DNA of 64,000 bases from contig CBDCHR010000007.1 in assembly GCA_965217295.1 (NCBI GenBank), forward strand, positions 8,258 through 72,257, given 5' to 3'. The notes under the pieces were generated by a model, which saw only the letters and a program-made list of their open reading frames with translations, searched no databases and had not been told where the DNA came from. Of this stretch, positions 30,321-40,759 are shown one piece after another. Made by a program: the position numbers and the translations under genes. Each line of letters starts with the position of its first letter. Positions within the stretch are counted from its first letter, which is position 1. The DNA is from Cyclobacteriaceae bacterium. Lineage in GTDB: Bacteria > Bacteroidota > Bacteroidia > Cytophagales > Cyclobacteriaceae.

Positions 30321-30515
30321 CTACCCGGACCCTTCCACCGACTGTTTTTGTAAAACCTTCCGGACGAAATCACTGTCGCGGTCATAAAGGATGCGATAAA
30401 ACGTTAGTGCCTGTTCGATGATCGCGGCCTGGGTGCTACCGGTCAAGCTTTGTACCGCGCCCAGATGCTCAAGCGCCTCGGTGCTCAACCGGAAGGATGT
30501 TGCCCGTTTCTTCAT
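30321..30515 (-). CDS. Small ribbon-helix-helix regulator at the head of the R-M operon
   Basis: ATSFRLSTEALEHL...TQAAIIEQAL; TTGACA-N18-TACGAT lies 7 nt before the ATG (leaderless). Confidence 0.65.
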   Translation of the reverse strand: MKKRATSFRLSTEALEHLGAVQSLTGSTQAAIIEQALTFYRILYDRDSDFVRKVLQKQSVEGSG

Positions 30516-30606
30516 TGCATGTATCGTATTGCAAAAAGCGGTACAATGTCAACCATGTTCGATCAATGGTGGTACGGCCAAAAAACTTTTTCCAGGTTGG
30601 ACACCC

Positions 30607-31314
30607 GTGGAAAGTCGTTCTAAGCGCGGAACCCCATTGCCCTGTAGTACGACGTTTCGTGAGGTCGCGGGGGCCTTGGCGGAACATTCGCCCAGGGAGT
30701 TTCCCTGGCGTGAGACGAGTAACCCTTACCAAATTCTCGTCGCGGAGCTGCTTTTACAGCGCACACGTCCGAATCTCGTCGGCCCGATATATCAGGAAAT
30801 CGTGGCCCGTTACCCAACCGTGGACGACCTGGCACGGGCGTCCAGATCGGACTTGGTTAACTTGACGGCGCGGCTGGGCTTTGCCAAGCGAGCCGATATT
30901 ATTACGCGCGTGACTCGCTGTGTCAGTGAGGAGCTAGGCGGTCGCATCCCGGACAGTTATGAAGCTCTAATAAGAATCCCCTTCGTCGGCATCTATACCG
31001 CGGCCGCGGTGCTGTGTCTCGGACACGGTAAGCCCATTGCGATGGTTGACGTGAACACGGTGCGGATTCTTGGCCGGGTGCTTTCCTTAATGCCGCGTGA
31101 TGACTCGCCTCGAGGCGACCCGGCTATGATAGCGGCAGCGGATACCGTGGTGCTGTGCCTGCCCGAGAAGGCGAAGAGCATCAACCTTGGCTTTATTGAT
31201 GTGGGAGCGCTCTACTGCAAGAAAAATCCGGTTTGTGAGCCGTGTCCCCTGAGTCCTTACTGCAATTATTACCAAAACCGAAAAGCGCTGGAATACCGTG
31301 GTCAGTCTGTGTAA
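30607..31314 (+). CDS. HhH-GPD DNA glycosylase, Mig-type T:G mismatch glycosylase
   Basis: FPWR, ELLLQRT, VGIYTAAAV, AMVDVN, NLGFID, CKKNPVCEPCPLSPYC (4Fe-4S); N-terminus uncertain. Confidence 0.8.
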   Translation: MESRSKRGTPLPCSTTFREVAGALAEHSPREFPWRETSNPYQILVAELLLQRTRPNLVGPIYQEIVARYPTVDDLARASRSDLVNLTARLGFAKRADIITRVTRCVSEELGGRIPDSYEALIRIPFVGIYTAAAVLCLGHGKPIAMVDVNTVRILGRVLSLMPRDDSPRGDPAMIAAADTVVLCLPEKAKSINLGFIDVGALYCKKNPVCEPCPLSPYCNYYQNRKALEYRGQSV

Positions 31315-31603
31315 AATTCGCGTTGTGTACCAGCCTGGTCCGGTACCCGAGGCTCCCGAGGTCGAAGCACTTATGCTGGTAAAAACCGAGGAAGAAATCA
31401 TGCAGGGAGAGCTAAGAGCTTGGACAGATAGAAAGCAGCCAACCTTTGAAATGACGGTGACAATGTAGTAGAGACCTAACAGCAATCTATATGCATAAGC
31501 TTCGGTAAATAAGTGGAAAATGTGGCACTTTCGCAACCGTTCGTGTTACTTTTGACTTTGAGCGTAAGTTAGGTCGATAAGGTAATGCAACAGGAGATAT
31601 GTT

Positions 31604-34600
31604 TTGATTGAGATTGAGAACACGTCTACTCATAGTCTGACATTTCCGCCGCTTCCCACCCGTCTTGTTGAGCGTGAAAACCTCACCAGCCAGATAATGA
31701 CTGTACTTGACAGGTCAAGCATGGCTTTTGTTTATGGAGAACAAGGAATTGGCAAAACAGTCTTGCTAGCGCAATTCACACAAGAGAACCCAAAATCGGG
31801 AATCTCAGTTTTCTTAAAACCAAATTCGATTGGCATAACTAACCTATCAACAATACGACGCGAGATTTACACGCAATCGCGTTATATCCTGAATAACCGC
31901 ATCCTGGATGTACATGGTGACCCTAGTGAAGAGGTCTACCATAGCACTTTGGCTCATTTAGCTCGCCGTGCCAAACAAAGTTTAGGGCGAATCTACTTCA
32001 TTATTGATGGTTTTGGAGAGCAGACTGTAGATTATCAAGCAGTGATTCTTCGTTCAGTACTTCCACTTGGCATGGCCCCGGGGGAGTTTAAGTATGTATT
32101 GTCAGGACTGTCAATTCCACATTCTTTAAATCAGATAAAGGCTGATTATGAGGCCATTAATGTGTATGGTTTTTCGGACTTTGAGTGCCATCATCTTCTT
32201 GAAGACCTAAAAATTGAAGATTCTGTTCGCACTGACCTTATTCGGGCCGTCAGGGGTGGGCATCCCGGAAGGTTAGCGATAATTCGAAGAGAACTCAAGC
32301 AGGGTGCCGATCCCACGGAAATGGTTTCACGGGCACGCGCTGAGTATCAGGAGATGATTGGACTAGAGTGGTCTCGCGCAATTGTCGCTCACCCAAATTC
32401 AAAACGCTTGTTGGCTGCGTTAGCTTATGCCCGTGCAGACTATACGCCTGAAGAATTGGCAATAGTTACGGAATTTTGTGTAAGTGATGTCAATCAAATG
32501 CTTTCTGCAATTCCGTTTATCGTTGAGGCCAAACAGGGATGGCGGCTAGCTACTCCACTACATCAGGAGTATGCGCAAAACCAGATACAAGATTTGCAGT
32601 ATCAGGTTCTAGATGGTTTGGCAAAACTTACTTTGAACCCCAAAGCCGGGGCTCCAAACTATGCTGTTGCAGTAGAGTACATGGCTGAATCGGCCCGACA
32701 CGACGATATTCTTAGCCTAGTCACTCCGGAGGTACTTGCTGCTGTTGTTGACCGCAATCAAGACTTCACTATAGCGGAACAACTCTCCCAAAGGGCAGTT
32801 GAAGCGGCTCGCGCTCTCGGGCATTTAGGTTCAGAGTTTCGAATGAATCTCTTATCTTCTACAGCACATACTTTGCGCGATACACAGGCACGTGCAACAT
32901 CTATCAAAACAATGGCGAATTTGGGAAAGTTTGATGAAGCATATGAGTTGGCTGCGTCATGCCCTATTTTGACAGAACGCTTCATGCTTCTAGCACATGT
33001 GGGTAGGCGACAAAAAGAGGAAATTGGTGCTACCCGTGCCGACATAGTTTCTGGCATTGATTTGCTGATCGAGGTTGTGGTGAGCTCTCTATCTGAATCG
33101 GCGAGAGTCAGCGCGGGTATTGATCTTTTCGTCTTCCACCCGAGGGCAGCAGTACTGCTAGCTAAACTTTCGGCGCAACTCGCCAAAAATGGCGAGAGCC
33201 CAGATAGGTTTTTGGCAACAATCGCAATTGCAGCTAGCTTAGTACGTGGCAAACAGCGTGATGTAGAAGCGTTTGATACTCTCCTGGCTGAAGTCGAGTC
33301 CGAAAGCAGCAAGTCTTTTTTATCAGCAATAGCACAGGCTTCGGCTGCAAAATCGTTGCTGACCGTTCTGGACGAGACCGGCATGTGGGAAGATGAAAGC
33401 GCTCTACCCTTTTTGGAGAAAATTGGTCCTGCAATAGCTCGCCGGGGTGCTGACGAGGCTGTACAAGTTCTTGACCGCATTTCGAGTTCTGTTATCTCCG
33501 CATCTTCTTTAAGGCTTCCGAGGATTCGTGCTCTTTCTACGGTTCTCTCCGCTGCTCGGCGCTCAGCATCTGCTGCGGAGTTAATGCCGGCTCTCGGCCG
33601 AATAGACACGATAGCTGAGGCGGAAACCACTAGGCCTACACTAGATGCAATTACAATCCGGCTTGAGCTGATTGCTGTTCGAGCCCTTTCTTTACCCGGT
33701 TCCGAACTAGTAGCGGAGTTAGAAAAGGTTGCTGATGTTTGTGCATCGATAGAGGACATCGCGCTGCGTCTTGAAGGTTATGCGACGCTTTATTCAATAG
33801 TTTGTGAGTTCGAGTCCAAAGTTAAAATAGCTGACGCAAGTTTAGAAGGAAGAATTCAGCAACAGGTTTTGGCTTTGGCAGAAATTGTTGTCAAAACTAC
33901 TGCGATACACGAATTGAGTTTGGAGCGCCCGCTTCGTATTATTGCCCGCAGTAATCTTCCATTGGCGCTGAAGCTTTCTGATACTGCCAATACGGTTCGT
34001 CGAAAAGGCTTGCTCAGGAAAATTAGCATTGTAGAACACCTTGAGTCGATTCATTCACTTCGTAATAATATTGACGTAGCACTTGAGCAAATAGAGAATA
34101 CACCATTAGATAGTCACCGCGAGCGCCTCGTTCAAGCCGTGTTGAGTTTTATTGGAGAGATGCCGTCTACAAAACGTTGCCATGCTGTTGGGGCGTTGGA
34201 CTGGATATATAAGCAAATCAAATCTTTATCTTCACCACAAACGAGAACTTCTTTGCTTGTTGAGCTCCTGCACCTTATTCCGGTAGGAAACAATGTAACT
34301 TCCGAGCTGATGCCAGCACCGCCTAGTGCCAACGCCCTCCACAAAAATATCACTGTAACTATATTCGAGAACTTGAGATTCATTGACGCCCCTTGGAAAA
34401 TTTTATCGCTGATAGGAGAAATTGGACGGTTCATAGATATATATTCCGAACAACTTAACGTTTTAGATAGCGTCATGGCCGAAACTATTGATCATGCAAA
34501 CATATCCTCATCTGATATAAATCAAGAATACAAAATGGCTCTCCAACTAGCTATTATTGCAGTAGCAGGTGCTACAAGCATGGGTCTTGCTTCACCGTAC

Positions 34601-36562
34601 GACTTACAGCGGCTTGAAGCTGCAGTCAAACGACTGCCACAGGCAATTGACCAGATAGCCGCGTTGGAACAGCTCATAGTTCGTCTCTGGAAATTTGGTA
34701 GTCACAAGGAACTGCGTGACGTGGCTGAGCGACTGTTAATACCTACACTTGAAGAATTACCCAGTGATACTGCCTTAGGTCTCAAGAGTGAAGCTTTAAT
34801 CGTCGCGGCTCCATCCTTGTTCATTTACGATTACAGTGTTTTTCAAGCAGAGTTGGAGATGCTTTCTCCTGCTGACAAACAGGCGGCTTGGCTCCGTACC
34901 TCCGAAACATTGATGCGTAAGCAGTCAGTTGCTGATCCGTTCTCCGACCAATCTTTTGCTGTTAGTTTCAATTACAAAGATGCACTACAGCTGCTCGATG
35001 CCCTCGAGCAATGCAATTTGGATGGTCAGATTGTGCGTGGCGTCGGCGTGTTGCATCGCTCTATAGAGCGCTTTAACACATCAATGTCACGTATTCAAAA
35101 AGCTGGAGTGCTAAAGCGAGCCAGAGAAGTTATAGAGAAAAAACTACCAAGTCCCGATGGAATTCTTCATGAGGGTTACAAAATATGGGCCGAGGCACTT
35201 ATCTTAAAATCAGAAAAAAATGGTCTCAAGGGTTCAGACTTAGACGGTCTGGCAAAGCGAGCTAGGAATATCCCAAATGTTTCTGACAAATGCTTCGTTC
35301 TTACAGTTCTAGGCGAACTTGCGTCACGTATAGACGATAAGAGAAAGCAATTAGCAGAAGCAGAGAAGTTGGCTGCTCATATAGAAGCAGGTCATGAGCG
35401 GCTCGAGCGCCTCTGTCACATTGCCGAAACCTATGCTGCATTTGACCCACCCAGTGCTAAACGTGTTTTGCTGCAGACTTGGCCTGCAATGAACACCACA
35501 ACAAATCCTTGGAGAGATGTGCTGAGTACACAGCAACGAGCTATCGACCTTGCCTACTCTATCTCACCGGAATTCGCCCAAGAGTTATCTATTGTTCTTG
35601 ATGACGACAGTGCCCGGCAGGCGCGTCGCCTTGTGGATAGGCGAGCAGAGTTTCTAGCCAACCGCAATCAAATACTTGGTTCTGGAAAAAACCTGTCTTT
35701 AAGCCAGCCTTCAATAGGTAAAACTGATGGAGAGGCAGTATGGGAAGCACTTGGTGCCATCAACGCTGGCCGCGCTCTACCGCTCCAACCTCAAGATGTT
35801 CTTGACAAAACCCAAGGATTACTTGAAAAAGGACTCAGAGCGGGTTTTCCCGCTAGTGCTCTTTTTGTTGAATGCGCAACCTCGGCTAGAGGGAAAAAAG
35901 AATATCGAGAAACGTTAATGAGAGATGTTGTAGATGCCACTTTAGACGGCGTTGAGTTCTTGTTCACATCCTTCAGAAAAATACGAGGGGTTGGAGAGAT
36001 CAAAACAGACAGACATTTTGAGGGGGGAGACGTTGGAGCGGTTTTCGGAAATGGAGACCGTTCAGCAGCAATGAAATATCTGCGCGATTGGCTTGAGGCA
36101 AATGCAACTGAGCGTATCGTGTTTGCAGATGGTTATTTTGGAGTTAATGAAGTAGATTTTCTTTCACTGTGCCTCGAAGCATGTCCTCGGGTGCCCGTAT
36201 ACATTATTACTGGATTGATCGGAGCAGAAAAAGGGCTTGATGGTATGACCGTTGACGAGGCTCTTGAACTAGCCTGGAAGCGGATTTCAGACCAGCCAGC
36301 TCCACAGTGTACTGTACATGTGGTTGGACTCAGACCTTCAAAAAAATCACCTTTACATGACAGGTTTTTATTTGGAGATACTGCTGCGATCGCGCTAGGC
36401 ACCTCCTTCAGCGGCTTTGGTTCACGCGTAGCCGCAATCACCCCAGTTGATTCAAAGTCACAAGTAGACCTTCTCAGTAGATACATAGAGCCAATTTTGC
36501 GCGGCGAAGTAAAAATTGATGGGCATAGAGTAACTTCATCTAAGTTCGAGCTTGGATCGTGA
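31604..36562 (+). CDS. 1652-aa STAND-class NTPase with helical repeats and C-terminal PLD-like (HDR) domain
   Basis: Walker A GEQGIGKT, Walker B IYFIIDG, winged helix, ~1100 aa helical region, C-terminal IVFADGYF...LHDRFLF...GTSFSGFG; TTG start with AGGAG SD; low GC. Confidence 0.75.
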   Translation: MIEIENTSTHSLTFPPLPTRLVERENLTSQIMTVLDRSSMAFVYGEQGIGKTVLLAQFTQENPKSGISVFLKPNSIGITNLSTIRREIYTQSRYILNNRILDVHGDPSEEVYHSTLAHLARRAKQSLGRIYFIIDGFGEQTVDYQAVILRSVLPLGMAPGEFKYVLSGLSIPHSLNQIKADYEAINVYGFSDFECHHLLEDLKIEDSVRTDLIRAVRGGHPGRLAIIRRELKQGADPTEMVSRARAEYQEMIGLEWSRAIVAHPNSKRLLAALAYARADYTPEELAIVTEFCVSDVNQMLSAIPFIVEAKQGWRLATPLHQEYAQNQIQDLQYQVLDGLAKLTLNPKAGAPNYAVAVEYMAESARHDDILSLVTPEVLAAVVDRNQDFTIAEQLSQRAVEAARALGHLGSEFRMNLLSSTAHTLRDTQARATSIKTMANLGKFDEAYELAASCPILTERFMLLAHVGRRQKEEIGATRADIVSGIDLLIEVVVSSLSESARVSAGIDLFVFHPRAAVLLAKLSAQLAKNGESPDRFLATIAIAASLVRGKQRDVEAFDTLLAEVESESSKSFLSAIAQASAAKSLLTVLDETGMWEDESALPFLEKIGPAIARRGADEAVQVLDRISSSVISASSLRLPRIRALSTVLSAARRSASAAELMPALGRIDTIAEAETTRPTLDAITIRLELIAVRALSLPGSELVAELEKVADVCASIEDIALRLEGYATLYSIVCEFESKVKIADASLEGRIQQQVLALAEIVVKTTAIHELSLERPLRIIARSNLPLALKLSDTANTVRRKGLLRKISIVEHLESIHSLRNNIDVALEQIENTPLDSHRERLVQAVLSFIGEMPSTKRCHAVGALDWIYKQIKSLSSPQTRTSLLVELLHLIPVGNNVTSELMPAPPSANALHKNITVTIFENLRFIDAPWKILSLIGEIGRFIDIYSEQLNVLDSVMAETIDHANISSSDINQEYKMALQLAIIAVAGATSMGLASPYDLQRLEAAVKRLPQAIDQIAALEQLIVRLWKFGSHKELRDVAERLLIPTLEELPSDTALGLKSEALIVAAPSLFIYDYSVFQAELEMLSPADKQAAWLRTSETLMRKQSVADPFSDQSFAVSFNYKDALQLLDALEQCNLDGQIVRGVGVLHRSIERFNTSMSRIQKAGVLKRAREVIEKKLPSPDGILHEGYKIWAEALILKSEKNGLKGSDLDGLAKRARNIPNVSDKCFVLTVLGELASRIDDKRKQLAEAEKLAAHIEAGHERLERLCHIAETYAAFDPPSAKRVLLQTWPAMNTTTNPWRDVLSTQQRAIDLAYSISPEFAQELSIVLDDDSARQARRLVDRRAEFLANRNQILGSGKNLSLSQPSIGKTDGEAVWEALGAINAGRALPLQPQDVLDKTQGLLEKGLRAGFPASALFVECATSARGKKEYRETLMRDVVDATLDGVEFLFTSFRKIRGVGEIKTDRHFEGGDVGAVFGNGDRSAAMKYLRDWLEANATERIVFADGYFGVNEVDFLSLCLEACPRVPVYIITGLIGAEKGLDGMTVDEALELAWKRISDQPAPQCTVHVVGLRPSKKSPLHDRFLFGDTAAIALGTSFSGFGSRVAAITPVDSKSQVDLLSRYIEPILRGEVKIDGHRVTSSKFELGS

Positions 36563-36672: not shown

Positions 36673-38082
36673 TTGATGAAAACCATCTTTTTGGACACCA
36701 ATATTTTCATGCACTGCGACCCGCCGGACCAAATCCCCTGGCTCGAGGTATTCGAGACGGACCGAGTTGAAATTATCGTGCCCATGATCGTGGTGGATGA
36801 ACTCGACAGGCATAAAGACAATCACCAACACTTCAAGTTGAAGAGACGAGCCCTCGAGCGCCTCAAGCAGCTCGAGGCGTGGTCTTTGAATGAGCCAGAA
36901 GAAATTCGCAAAGGGGTAAAGCTGGCTCTCGAGATTCAGGTGCCGACCGTCGACTTCGAAGCTCTTGGCCTCGAGAAGTCCAAACCCGACCACCTTCTTA
37001 TTGCCAGCATGGTCCAGTTCCGGGATGGACACGATAAGGCAGATATTGTGCTTGTGGCTCACGACACCGGACCCCGACTCACTGCCCGGAGGTTAGGCTT
37101 CAAGGCAGTTGAACTCCCCGAAGATTACCGTCTTACAGGCGAACCCGACCCACTCGAGAAGGAAAACCGCGAACTGAAACAGAAAATGCAGCGGTTTGAG
37201 AACGCACTACCCAAATTGAGCCTCGCTATTTTTGACGGGCTTAAGACAGACAGTCGAACAACACTGACTATCAGCCAGGTCTTGCCCTTCTCCAGAGGTG
37301 ATTTGGAGAGTTTTTTGGAAAAAACGAGGGCTAAACATCCCTTTATGCGAACATTGTCAAAGCATGAAGAATTAGCTAGGCTCCTTGAAGATTCGAAATT
37401 TTCTCAGTCCTCTGACACATTGCGTCAGATTGAGCAGGCTCTGAATACCCTTGCGGACTCGAATCTGCATTCGAGGAGTTTGACCAATGAGAACGAGATA
37501 AAAAGTTACAACGAGTCACTAAGTAAATTTTACGCCCTAAATGAAGAGTTCTACAGGCAAGCTCACCGGCACCGTGTTGCTCGGGGGCTTACAGCGCCTC
37601 TTTATTTGGCTCTGGTCAACGAAGGAACTAAACCAGGCGAAGACGTTGACATTTATATGCACTTTCCAGATGGCTTCTCTATGTACCTTGAGGGTGAATT
37701 ACCTAAGCCACCTAAAACTCCAGTCGTGCCGACAAAGCCTTGGGTACATCCTGAGCAGCCTTCACTATCCGACCTCTTAAGAGATTACACCGATTCTCCT
37801 CTTTCCAGGCTGTCGCACAATTTTGAGGGACTCAATCTTTCTCCATCCAACGTAAGCGTCCCAGAAATCAAGAAAACCAATAGCTACGATGTCAACTTTC
37901 ATGTTGAGCGGATAAAACATAACGTGCCTGAGAAACTACCAACGCTTTATTTAACGTTTGATAGTTTCGAATCGGCTTCTAACTTCACGATTGACTATGA
38001 ACTTAAGGCGGCGAATCTACCCGACCCGGTCACTGGGAAACTACATGTCGTTTTGCAAAAAGAGATGGGTGGTTCATCATGA
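36673..38082 (+). CDS. PIN-domain protein with coiled coil and unknown C-terminal domain
   Basis: FLDTNIF, VVDELD, PDHLLI, AHDTG acidic tetrad. Confidence 0.85.
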   Translation: MMKTIFLDTNIFMHCDPPDQIPWLEVFETDRVEIIVPMIVVDELDRHKDNHQHFKLKRRALERLKQLEAWSLNEPEEIRKGVKLALEIQVPTVDFEALGLEKSKPDHLLIASMVQFRDGHDKADIVLVAHDTGPRLTARRLGFKAVELPEDYRLTGEPDPLEKENRELKQKMQRFENALPKLSLAIFDGLKTDSRTTLTISQVLPFSRGDLESFLEKTRAKHPFMRTLSKHEELARLLEDSKFSQSSDTLRQIEQALNTLADSNLHSRSLTNENEIKSYNESLSKFYALNEEFYRQAHRHRVARGLTAPLYLALVNEGTKPGEDVDIYMHFPDGFSMYLEGELPKPPKTPVVPTKPWVHPEQPSLSDLLRDYTDSPLSRLSHNFEGLNLSPSNVSVPEIKKTNSYDVNFHVERIKHNVPEKLPTLYLTFDSFESASNFTIDYELKAANLPDPVTGKLHVVLQKEMGGSS

Positions 38083-39062
38083 GCGACATTGTCCACCCCG
38101 AAGGCTCGAGCACCCTCGTCCAGATGAGCGAGGGTTCGCTTCCCGTTCTGGTAAGCCAGCAAGGTGCCAAAGCCAGCTACAGCTTTGTCGAATTCTTCAC
38201 CAACAACCTCGCCAACGACAACACCAGAGAAGCCTATGCCCGCGCCTGCTACCGCTTTCTCGAGTGGTGCGACACGTCGGGCTTCACCCTGGAAACGGTC
38301 CACCCCGTCGCCGTAGCCGCCTACTTCAAGCAACACCCGCTGTCTGCCCCGTCGGTCAAGCAACACTTAGCTGCGGTCAAAGGTTTATTCGATTGGTTTG
38401 TGGTGCAAGGAGTCGTGAGCTACAACCCCGCCGCCTCGGTCAAAGGCCCCAAGTACAGCGTCCGCAAGGGCAAAACCCCCGTCCTCACCCCTGAAGAGAC
38501 GAAGCAGTTGCTCGAGTCGGTGCAGGGAGACAATGCTAAAGACCTGCGGGACAAGGCGATGTTAGGGGTGCTCTTTTACGCTTGGGTGCGGGTGAGTGCC
38601 CTGGTCAACCTGGACCTCAAGGACTACCGCCACATCGGCAGGCGCTCGTACTTGCGGTTGAAAGAAAAAGGCGGCAAGACCCCGGAGCTGCCGGTCCATC
38701 ACATGGCGCAGGAGTATCTGGACCGTTATCTTGAGGAAGTGGGCATCGACCCGGACGACCCCCGGCAGCGAACCCTGCCCATGTTCCGCAGTCTGGACCG
38801 GAAGCGCCAGCTCACCGAGAAGCGGCTGAGCCGGGTCGACGTGTTTCGGATGATTCGCAAGCGGGCGGCAAGAGCGGGCATCTCATCGGAGATTTGTGTC
38901 CACAGCGCCAGGGCGACGGGCATCACGACCTACCTGAGCAGTGGGGGCAGCATCGAAGGCGCGCAGGACATCGCCGACCACGCGGACCCGCGCACCACGC
39001 GGCTTTACGACCGCTCGAGGGACAAGGTGACGTTGTCGGAGATAGAGCGGGTGCAGTACTGA
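38079..39062 (+). CDS. Tyrosine recombinase/integrase
   Basis: R (WVRVSAL), K (KGGK), HSAR, H (ADHAD), Y (RLYDR); FFTNNLANDNTREAY N-domain. Confidence 0.93.
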   Translation: MSDIVHPEGSSTLVQMSEGSLPVLVSQQGAKASYSFVEFFTNNLANDNTREAYARACYRFLEWCDTSGFTLETVHPVAVAAYFKQHPLSAPSVKQHLAAVKGLFDWFVVQGVVSYNPAASVKGPKYSVRKGKTPVLTPEETKQLLESVQGDNAKDLRDKAMLGVLFYAWVRVSALVNLDLKDYRHIGRRSYLRLKEKGGKTPELPVHHMAQEYLDRYLEEVGIDPDDPRQRTLPMFRSLDRKRQLTEKRLSRVDVFRMIRKRAARAGISSEICVHSARATGITTYLSSGGSIEGAQDIADHADPRTTRLYDRSRDKVTLSEIERVQY

Positions 39063-39127: not shown

Positions 39128-40759
39128 TTATAGAAGGTTTAAAGCATCATGAAGACCAGGATGCAAATAAAATGGTCCGTCAATCTCGCATCGCGCATTG
39201 CTATTAAGATACTTGAACTGTGGTCCATGTTTGGGAACCAAATTGCCCATAACCGAGAATTCAAACAGTTGCTTGATTAAATAGGAGGGGTCTCTCCGAG
39301 TGATTCTGATTTCGTTGATTTTGGCTGTATAAGCTTTTTGAAATTCTTCGCCGGAGAATATCTTTTTGTTGATAAGCATAAAGACATCCCACAATTCGTA
39401 AATCTCCGGAATCAAACCTTGTATTTCATCTTCAAGTTCTGTTTTCAGATAAAGAGAGTACCGGCTTTGAATGCGCCGAAGGGCTCGCTCATCAACTTTT
39501 TCAACGTTTATACTAACTGTATCATCTGCACAGTAGCTTAAAAAGCGCACAAAATCCCTTGGTCGCATCAAAGACCTGCTGCTAATTGCATCAAAAATGC
39601 TTACGTCTCCCTCAGAGCGGGATAATTGGACTTTGAAATCATTGAAAACCTGTACCCAGGCTTCTTCAAAGTTGAAAATCTCATTATTCACTGCTATGGC
39701 TCTGGAAATACGAAACGCAAGAAGATTCTTTATCTTATCGGGGTTCCAATCTAATGCAATTGTAAGATCAATCCACTTTGCCCTATCCGGATCACGGAGT
39801 TGAGAGAAAATATCGTCGCGTAGGAAAATAACTGGAAGGACAGATAGTGAATCCCTTTGAAAGATGGATTTAATGTCCTGAACCGCTTTGAATAAGCTTG
39901 TCAACAATGCCTGAAAATCCCCGGTAGAACCCTTGTCAGAACTGCTTTTATAATCCTCATCAAGTTCGTCTAGCGAAATGACATAGGTCGAGCTGTCAAG
40001 GTTTTGAAATATCATTTTCTCCAGAGCTTCAACTCTATCCGTCCAAGATACCTCTCTTTTAATGTTGGACTTCTCAAAATCTATTCCCATGTTGAAAAGC
40101 TTTGCTCCAAAACCTTTGCTAGTCCATTTGCTTATGCTCTGGGACAATGATGTATCGGTGTCCACCTTAAATAATGGTTCGAGTTTCTGTCTGAGTGACA
40201 ACTCGATGTTTTCGTTTTCACACATCATCTGAGCAATGCTTGAATAAATCACGTACTTCCAGAGGGTTATATATTGGTTAGGAGCTGTATAGGAAGTATT
40301 GCTCAAAGCGTATAAATCTCTTAGCGGAAAATTTTTAAATGTTAGCTTCTTACTAAACCAAGAATCCGAGACTTTCTTGGTCAAGTATTCACTAATGGCT
40401 GTTTTCCCGGTACCTTTTCGGCCAATGACATAGCACCGCTTCCCTGACTCTATAAGCTCGACCTCTCGCGTGTGATAAAAATACCGGTCGCTGTCCTCAA
40501 GTTTGGCTTCGACTTTCCACTCCGAAATTTCACTCAGGAGGTGAGGCGTCGCCTTAAACTTTTGTGGGTTGACCACAGAAACATCTACCGCTGTGGGACC
40601 CTTGTTGTTTTTGCTCGGTTCGAATGATACTAACCTACCTTTAGTTAGAACCGGTGCTCCTACAACATCATTTCTGTGAAAAAAACGCTCCTGTCCGTCT
40701 TCTCCTGTCAAAATGCCGTATCGACCTGTTGTGTTGAAAAACTTGATGGTTCCGAGCAT
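39128..40759 (-). CDS. Cold-shock-domain / P-loop ATPase fusion (Sll1717/FunZ-like ATPase)
   Basis: GTIKFFN..GRYGIL..RFFH CSD; GRKGTGKT, SLDELDE, FLRDDIF, RPRD; low GC. Confidence 0.78.
   Translation of the reverse strand: MLGTIKFFNTTGRYGILTGEDGQERFFHRNDVVGAPVLTKGRLVSFEPSKNNKGPTAVDVSVVNPQKFKATPHLLSEISEWKVEAKLEDSDRYFYHTREVELIESGKRCYVIGRKGTGKTAISEYLTKKVSDSWFSKKLTFKNFPLRDLYALSNTSYTAPNQYITLWKYVIYSSIAQMMCENENIELSLRQKLEPLFKVDTDTSLSQSISKWTSKGFGAKLFNMGIDFEKSNIKREVSWTDRVEALEKMIFQNLDSSTYVISLDELDEDYKSSSDKGSTGDFQALLTSLFKAVQDIKSIFQRDSLSVLPVIFLRDDIFSQLRDPDRAKWIDLTIALDWNPDKIKNLLAFRISRAIAVNNEIFNFEEAWVQVFNDFKVQLSRSEGDVSIFDAISSRSLMRPRDFVRFLSYCADDTVSINVEKVDERALRRIQSRYSLYLKTELEDEIQGLIPEIYELWDVFMLINKKIFSGEEFQKAYTAKINEIRITRRDPSYLIKQLFEFSVMGNLVPKHGPQFKYLNSNARCEIDGPFYLHPGLHDALNLL

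Follow-up and report, generated by a model that had tools for sequence, protein, structure and literature searches.

The gene under study lies at positions 31604 to 36562 on the forward strand of a 64,000-nucleotide stretch of DNA (the window, meaning the whole stretch that was analyzed) from a Cyclobacteriaceae bacterium (contig CBDCHR010000007.1 of assembly GCA_965217295.1). It encodes a single protein predicted to combine a STAND nucleoside triphosphatase (NTPase), a long helical region, and a C-terminal PLD-like domain of the His-Asp-Arg (HDR) type. The host assembly measures 6.7 Mb in 8 contigs, and the element carrying the gene is contig C7. The open reading frame runs for 1,652 codons without an internal stop, and its coordinates include the stop codon. 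It begins with a TTG codon at 31604, the earliest possible start past the upstream stop codon, and a GGAG ribosome-binding site (31593 to 31596; like all features of the gene given below, on the forward strand) ends 7 nucleotides 5' of this start. Residues E3, I4, and P15 are invariant in the alignment of close homologs (alignment A1), P15 being nearly invariant across the whole family as well; because all three precede the next methionine, the TTG start is credible. The G+C content of the gene is 46.5%, compared with 61 to 65% in the flanking plasmid backbone, and it is low throughout a block of the window around the gene, from 28 to 41 kb. Both the low G+C content and the TTG start had been remarked upon in an earlier note on this DNA, made from the sequence alone, and both were borne out here. 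A scan for promoters and terminators gave no signal exceeding the shuffled expectation.

Residues 1 to 470 were aligned with 20 relatives taken from homolog loci and modeled using AlphaFold2 (pLDDT, 87.1); conservation of the Walker motifs, and of the C-terminal motifs described below, was judged on 34 diverse relatives. The model contains a nucleotide-binding domain with a five-stranded P-loop core (residues ~20 to 190; 31661 to 32173), in line with sub-threshold Pfam matches and Foldseek comparisons, followed by a helical domain (residues 192 to 262; 32177 to 32389) and a winged-helix domain of three helices and a beta-hairpin (residues 266 to 316; 32399 to 32551). In the last of these, which is also recovered in the Foldseek matches, the helices span residues 266 to 302 and the hairpin spans residues 306 to 315, with further helices continuing to residue 470. 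The Walker A motif GEQGIGKT (G45 to T52; 31736 to 31759) was identified in the alignments: G50 is invariant in all of them, K51 is invariant or nearly so, and T52 shows no variation in A1 and A6, which are the smaller ones. The Walker B strand, YFIIDG (31994 to 32011), contains the invariant D135, and the helical domain bears the STAND GxP motif as GGHPG, within the segment GGHPGRLAI at 32255 to 32281, its proline P221 being invariant or nearly so. Since only about 40 residues precede the P-loop, an N-terminal effector is absent, and the protein begins directly with the NTPase and continues with a winged helix, just as the earlier note had proposed.

Across residues 20 to 147, Pfam returned only sub-threshold matches, to AAA_16, AAA_22, NACHT, and nSTAND6, and the curated cutoffs were not reached (AAA_16, 30.5 versus 32.6 bits; NACHT, 20.4 versus 26.7 bits; nSTAND6, 17.7 versus 27.7 bits). 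No above-threshold Pfam or NCBIfam match was found for the whole protein. Judged by these profile scores, the STAND clade represented here is a divergent one that lies below the curated Pfam and NCBIfam cutoffs. When the nucleotide-binding oligomerization domain (NOD) was compared with the Protein Data Bank (PDB) using Foldseek, the best E value was obtained for Avs3 (8dgc; E, 4.5e-10), and MalT (8bob; query- and target-normalized TM-scores, 0.61 and 0.69) and Apaf-1 (1z6t; query-normalized TM-score, 0.64) were also recovered. Further matches comprised a STAND-TPR protein, CED-4, Avs4, NLRP proteins, and NOD2, and the Foldseek probability was 1.00 for Avs3, MalT, Apaf-1, 6mfv, CED-4, Avs4, NLRP9, and NOD2. 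A profile search of PDB sequences with the same module yielded ORC5, an NB-ARC protein, and Avs4, all of them weak. Because the modeled fold, the Foldseek matches to STAND proteins, and the conserved Walker A, Walker B, and GxP motifs agree, the predicted STAND-type order of nucleotide-binding, helical, and winged-helix domains and the lack of an N-terminal effector are, in our view, solid assignments.

At the opposite end of the protein, 30 C-terminal domains were aligned and modeled using AlphaFold2 (pLDDT, 89.2). AlphaFold2, Foldseek, profile matches, the NF040700 model, and hhalign all place a PLD-fold domain of the HDR type at residues ~1479 to 1652 (36038 to 36559). The first PLD strand ends in D1509-G-Y-F (36128 to 36139), in which D1509 is invariant and F1512 is nearly so. 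The counterpart of the HxK motif is H1585-D1586-R1587 (36356 to 36364), with an invariant arginine and with histidine and aspartate present in at least 90% of sequences, and the counterpart of the GSxN motif is G1599-T-S-F-S-G-F-G1606 (36398 to 36421), with S1601 and G1606 invariant. Family-wide, the invariant residues of the domain are D1509, W1558, P1567, R1587, S1601, and G1606. The D-x-Y and HDR...GTS motifs that the earlier note had picked out are thus present and conserved across the diverse relatives.

All 27 Foldseek matches of the C-terminal domain in the PDB at an E value of 0.001 or less are PLD-superfamily or PLD-like folds, among them FAM83/BJ-TSA-9, TrmBL2, PssA, NucT (target-normalized TM-score, 0.64), and SauUSI; MITD1, phospholipase D, Zucchini, and PPK1 fall just past this threshold. 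In a viral structure library, the top match was a NucT-like nuclease. Sequence-based comparisons gave far less: Pfam found no match in the domain, including to any PLDc model, and single-sequence searches of the PDB with the whole protein and with the domain were likewise without a match. The sole sequence-level match in the PDB came from a profile search and was marginal (Escherichia coli PssA; E, 0.021). In that alignment, the ICDPYF strand and the iHDRww...GTSlN segment of the family are paired with LHFKGF...GASLN of PssA, and on this basis H1585 corresponds to the histidine of the HKD motif, R1587 replaces its lysine, and the G-T-S1601 segment corresponds to the G-S of GSxN. Compared with the canonical HxK(x)4D pattern, the window protein reads H1585-D-R1587-(x)4-D1592; arginine stands for lysine throughout the family, and the aspartate at the +7 position, retained in the window protein as D1592, is missing in most members and absent from the main clade. 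The asparagine of GSxN is a serine here and N, K, Q, H, or G in relatives.

The model and its structural matches indicate that the C-terminal domain has a PLD-superfamily fold, and from the conserved motifs at the modeled site we infer that it probably acts as a phosphodiesterase or nuclease. The earlier note had called the domain a nuclease. Its fold assignment stands, and the catalytic label was overstated given the arginine in place of lysine, the unconserved asparagine, and the noncatalytic proteins among the structural neighbors. Single-HKD nucleases such as Nuc/NucT (6ehi), Zucchini (4gem), and the N-terminal domain of SauUSI (7clg) share the fold with one half-site per chain and have their histidine and Ser/Thr motifs at equivalent positions; the domain studied here differs from them in the arginine for lysine, in the unconserved asparagine, and in two extra aspartates, the invariant D1509 and the highly conserved D1586. 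Two cluster representatives depart from the motif itself (P0045 and P0006), one having K-D-R and the other H-P-R in place of H-D-R; such variants may be inactive or resemble decoys, or they may reflect assembly errors.

Between the two modeled modules lies a long middle region (residues 318 to 1459; 32555 to 35980), presumed to be an alpha-helical repeat sensor or scaffold because its ends are modeled as helical (residues 318 to 470 and 1441 to 1459) and weak internal repeats were detected. In profile-profile comparisons of 120-residue blocks, residues 951 to 1032 matched residues 1210 to 1281 with a probability of 80%, and a 36-residue match reached 81%. The earlier note's claim of more than 1,000 amino acids of helical repeats was thus verified in part, through the helical ends and the weak internal repeats. 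No Pfam match and no PDB sequence match was obtained within residues 318 to 1459, the PDB having been searched with the whole protein and with residues 1131 to 1445. Mean pairwise identity is 0.28 in the NOD, 0.22 to 0.29 in the middle region, and 0.35 in the PLD domain, and the only clearly variable stretch of the protein comprises residues ~841 to 920. Several polar residues of the middle region (N796, R800, R801, Q1165, H1189, G1191, Y1192, N1225, D1228, D1333, D1335, and R1338) are invariant or nearly invariant, including an H1189-x-G-Y pattern, and they hold across relatives of ~20% identity. This even conservation and these polar invariants hint that the region may bind a fixed ligand, hold a second active site, or make autoinhibitory contact with the PLD domain.

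The HDR-type module is not confined to this protein. The VPA1262 family was named Juno in a 2026 preprint, which showed its proteins to protect E. coli, with plaquing by T4, lambda-vir, and two BASEL phages falling more than 100-fold, and which gave no mechanism (bioRxiv 10.64898/2026.08.01.741415). The C-terminal domain of the window protein matched the last third of NF040700 (VPA1262_N_dom; positions ~308 to 478) at sub-threshold E values of 1e-7 to 5e-9; when eight other C-terminal domains of the family were scanned against the same model, seven matched at 1e-8 to 1e-11, and one, from locus L006, was weaker (E, 0.002). These matches, at 31 to 41 bits, do not reach the cutoffs of the Juno models (NF040700, 80 bits; NF040699, 325 bits). 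Using hhalign, the C-terminal domain profile aligned with a 508-amino-acid Prevotella protein at 98.2% probability and 32% identity, and this protein is a genuine VPA1262_N_dom protein, scoring 138 bits on NF040700. The motifs IICDPYFG, LHDRFLIVDD, and LGTSFNNFG are common to both. A wider homology to Juno was rejected: the region before the PLD domain is unlike the rest of the Juno N-terminal domain, and the 315 residues ahead of the PLD domain have no similarity to the Prevotella protein. As far as profile comparisons can tell, only the HDR-type PLD module is common to the two families, and it behaves as a portable cassette. The Prevotella lacticifex gene (L038:8891-10414) encodes the VPA1262 N-terminal domain only and lacks the long C-terminal part that full Juno proteins have; its product may be a short or split form of Juno.

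An exhaustive search of representative proteins with residues 453 to 1652 recovered 975 clusters at 50% identity with E values of 1e-3 or less, 438 of them at 1e-30 or less, and nearly all 975 representatives are 1,600 to 1,670 amino acids long and aligned end to end. The impression of an orphan, left by a word-indexed search that had returned four proteins, was rejected on this evidence. A motif-limited scan of species-representative genomes recovered family members at at least 34 loci in at least eight phyla; the number of loci is a lower bound, the main-clade alignment recovering only motif-bearing members. They include Ignavibacteriota, Chloroflexota, Armatimonadota, Acidobacteriota, Planctomycetota, Bacillota (Neobacillus, Peribacillus, and Paenibacillus), Geomonas, and Gammaproteobacteria (Modicisalibacter, Franzmannia, and Shewanella). 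Most members reside on long chromosomal contigs, and five PLSDB plasmids carry one. The gene did not turn up in any of the 40 relatives of the host genome that were searched, among them 15 from the same genus; no family member was found in a protein search of phage records; and DNA searches of plasmids with the gene and the backbone as queries gave no match.

In public records, members are named "hypothetical protein" or "ATP-binding protein." When 30 members were scanned with PADLOC v2, none had a significant full-length match; the best matches, to mad8, PDC-S01, and PDC-S05, were at the level of the P-loop or the C-terminal domain (E, 1e-5 to 3e-4). The Avs4 model of NCBIfam scored 12.5 bits against a cutoff of 1,500, and that of PADLOC was matched by 1 of the 30 members (E, 0.0017). 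A census of prokaryotic STAND proteins, as set out in its main text, covers 589 clades and defines Avs7 to Avs21, and that main text makes no mention of PLD or C-terminal effectors (Lee et al., Nature 2026, PMC13581612). Of the outcomes that the earlier note had said would refute its reading, the two that can be judged from sequence did not occur: there was no full-length match to an Avs type, and the C-terminal domain does have the PLD fold. Two points qualify that reading: the family, with ~975 clusters, is far from rare, and its effector module already occurs in Juno/VPA1262. The family is sizeable, uncharacterized, and horizontally mobile. Apparently disrupted copies were seen in Peribacillus deserti (L014), Candidatus Acidiferrum (L026), an Acidobacteriota metagenome-assembled genome (MAG) (L009), and Franzmannia pantelleriensis (L032), the reading frames being shortened to 434 to 1,521 amino acids though tblastn aligns almost the entire protein; at L032 the alignment is spread over 6.5 kb, suggesting an insertion. 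Such copies would indicate repeated decay of the family gene.

Upstream of the gene, the window encodes an Eco29kI-type endonuclease, a C5 cytosine methylase, and an HhH-GPD glycosylase, and downstream it encodes a PIN-domain protein, a tyrosine recombinase, a cold-shock-domain fusion protein, and ParA. Farther along are ParB, an ArdC-like protein, a Toprim protein, and a type IV coupling protein (T4CP), whereas cargo genes for sugar catabolism fill the left third of the window. From the low G+C content and these neighbors, the gene was placed in a foreign, defense-type block on a conjugative element. The restriction-modification (R-M), PIN, and integrase neighbors that the earlier note had listed are all present, but the PIN and integrase genes are not conserved partners. 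In an all-against-all comparison of 169 neighbor proteins from 23 loci, no protein family occurred in more than three loci, and the gene is therefore a stand-alone unit. Type I R-M, PDC-S02, PDC-S68, YhcG-type nuclease, McrB-like, and recombinase genes are scattered near homologs.

Tyrosine or serine recombinases or insertion sequence (IS) elements adjoin the gene in the window, at four further loci (L003, L007, L018, and L020), and on two plasmids, pWNCR47 and Aromatoleum plasmid 2, both of which have IS elements and integrases around it; serine recombinases lie near the family gene in three loci. The contexts on PLSDB plasmids include IS elements, recombinases, a Fic gene, and a TIR gene pair. 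At the Armatimonadota MAG locus (L007), tyrosine recombinases occur on both sides of the gene, at 639 to 1598 on the reverse strand and 7339 to 8397 on the forward strand, and are homologous to the one that lies two genes downstream in the window, at 38079 to 39062 (forward strand). This bracketing hints at a cassette, borne by recombinases, in which the STAND gene moves. On the Bacillus cereus plasmid NZ_CP137769.1, a pair of ATP-binding and TIR-domain genes (L041:3690-7093) lies directly upstream of the family member and looks like another defense module. In the window itself, the HhH-GPD glycosylase gene (30418 to 31314, forward strand) immediately adjoins the C5 methylase/Eco29kI pair, a position at which a Vsr-type repair gene is more usual. 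The cold-shock-domain protein (39128 to 40759, reverse strand; 543 amino acids) has an N-terminal CSD (Pfam E, 4e-8) followed by ~480 residues without a Pfam match, belongs to the same low-G+C block, and is a possible separate single-gene defense candidate.

The protein can be set against three kinds of large ATPase or defense protein. Immune STANDs have been described as an N-terminal effector, an NTPase, and a C-terminal sensor (PMC12931631). With Avs proteins (Avs1 to Avs5 and Avs7 to Avs21; for example, Avs3 8dgc and Avs4 8dgf), the window protein shares the STAND core, a very large helical region, a single-gene organization, a nuclease-type effector fold, and a mobile context of the defense-island type. 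However, it matches no Avs type at full length or model level; its Walker A motif starts at residue 45 and its effector-like domain occupies residues 1479 to 1652, which is not the Avs order; its effector is an HDR-type PLD domain rather than Mrr, Cap4, SIR2, or the like; and its sensor region is evenly conserved. MalT and the LAL regulators resemble it in having the NTPase first, then a helical arm or sensor, and the output domain last, and MalT (8bob) gave the highest target-normalized TM-score for the NOD; a Pfam affinity of the AAA_16 type is a further resemblance. They differ in their output, which is a LuxR-type helix-turn-helix (HTH) instead of a PLD fold (no HTH Pfam match was found here); the window protein is also ~750 residues longer than MalT and sits in a mobile, defense-like context rather than in a regulon. 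The earlier note's inverted architecture is accordingly correct in placing the NTPase first and an effector-like domain last, but it is not unprecedented among STANDs, since MalT/LAL regulators share this layout and one of the best structural matches is MalT itself. Juno, like the window protein, is a single-gene, helical-rich giant protein found on mobile islands and carries the HDR-type module with the motifs ICDPYFG, (L/I)HDR(F/W), and LGTSFN. The two part in the placement of the module: Juno has it within its N-terminal domain, with no report of a match to a STAND NTPase, and the window protein has it at the C-terminus, following a STAND NTPase.

Collectively, these findings suggest that the gene is plasmid cargo that probably encodes a single-protein, NLR-like conflict or immune receptor. 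In the more specific form that we favor on balance, with moderate confidence, it would be a STAND receptor that works as a single gene against phages or plasmids and activates its PLD-like phosphodiesterase by oligomerizing. The resting protein would be an ADP-bound, closed monomer; a phage- or plasmid-derived ligand would bind the helical region and, after the manner of Avs, MalT, and Apaf-1, promote nucleotide exchange and oligomerization. Oligomerization would then pair the single-HKD-like C-terminal domains and switch on the phosphodiesterase. The enzyme would most likely be a nuclease that attacks nucleic acid of the invader, the host, or both, with direct or abortive protection as the outcome. 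The single-HKD PLD enzymes Nuc, NucT, Zucchini, and BfiI build one active site across a dimer, and because such enzymes need the dimer, pairing of the C-terminal domains would be a natural on-switch. As a whole, the interpretation offered in the earlier note was partly supported, and at the level of architecture and fold it was largely supported.

Several observations weigh against this receptor model. The PLD motif is noncanonical at three positions, one member has lysine instead of the motif histidine, and FAM83/BJ-TSA-9, TrmBL2, and MITD1, which are noncatalytic PLD-like proteins, are among the best structural neighbors. Conservation in the presumed sensor is close to that in the NTPase, and its length is tightly fixed, unlike the diversifying sensors often expected of pattern-recognition receptors. 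More than 1,100 residues separate the C-terminal domain from the oligomerizing NOD, so that proximity-induced dimerization is less straightforward than for the N-terminal effectors of Avs proteins. Finally, many of the homolog loci have ordinary housekeeping neighbors.

It is conceivable, though unlikely, that the C-terminal domain is nonenzymatic and, in the way of TrmBL2, MITD1, and FAM83, binds DNA, a membrane, a ligand, or a protein, making the whole an ATP-dependent switch or scaffold; the protein could then be a MalT-like regulator with a binding output or a receptor recruiting an effector that another gene encodes. The noncatalytic proteins among the top Foldseek matches, the lysine-to-arginine replacement, the unconserved catalytic asparagine, and an architecture and best TM-score that point to MalT all fit such a role. 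It is harder to reconcile with the invariance or near-invariance of H, D, R, S, and G, at 20 to 25% overall identity, exactly at the HKD and GSxN positions, with the lack of a conserved partner gene that could supply an effector, and with the presence of the same module at the head of Juno, which is protective on its own. Quite unlikely, in turn, is an immune STAND whose PLD-like domain acts on something other than nucleic acid, such as membrane phospholipids (with abortive infection through membrane disruption), nucleotides, or polyphosphate. PssA, cardiolipin synthase, and PPK1 use the PLD fold on such substrates; PssA is also the one, marginal sequence-level match in the PDB, and it is joined by phospholipase D and PPK1 among the structural matches. 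But a single-HKD domain as small as this one is typically a nuclease, as in NucT, Zucchini, and the N-terminal domain of SauUSI, which gave the best target-normalized TM-scores, the NucT-like nuclease from the viral library points the same way, and no signal of membrane association was noticed, although no formal search for one was made.

Two further explanations concern the unit in which the gene works. It might serve the mobile element itself, through plasmid-plasmid or plasmid-phage exclusion, as an addiction or stabilization module, or as a selfish gene spreading with site-specific recombinases. The location of the gene on conjugative or large plasmids and the recombinases or IS elements that adjoin it in the window and at several other loci are compatible with this idea, which we nevertheless consider improbable, most members being on long chromosomal contigs; it overlaps the receptor model more than it excludes it, because defense genes commonly ride the same elements. 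A two-gene system, with the downstream PIN-domain protein (36673 to 38082) as a second effector, is suggested by the shared strand, the gap of 110 bp, and the lack of a terminator-like site within that gap. It is nonetheless very improbable: no PIN homolog lies beside the gene at any of the 22 other loci (blastp E, 1e-5), PIN is absent from the recurrent Pfam families at homolog loci, and the PIN gene is translationally coupled to the integrase instead. The PIN gene was rejected as a partner for its lack of recurrence at these loci.

Returning to the model of a STAND receptor with a PLD-like phosphodiesterase, a wider proposal may be made, which we regard as possible but hold distinctly more tentatively. 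The HDR-type PLD-like domain could constitute a distinct class of defense effector not defined before, a portable cassette used by at least two architectures, Juno and this STAND family, and the family could provide the first immune STAND of MalT polarity, with a PLD active site assembled from two C-terminal half-sites upon oligomerization driven by a ligand. To our knowledge, all experimentally characterized bacterial STAND immune receptors (Avs1 to Avs5, Avs7 to Avs21, and bNACHT) carry the effector ahead of the NTPase. An effector placed after more than 1,100 sensor residues would show that NLR-like immunity can be wired in the MalT orientation too, and it raises the structural question of how oligomerization of the NOD controls a distal domain. 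As Pfam misses the PLD module, effector-based censuses may have scored such proteins as effector-less. If the proposal is correct, work on the STAND family would also reveal the mechanism of Juno, and because the PLD module is common to both, one biochemical study could explain two defense families.

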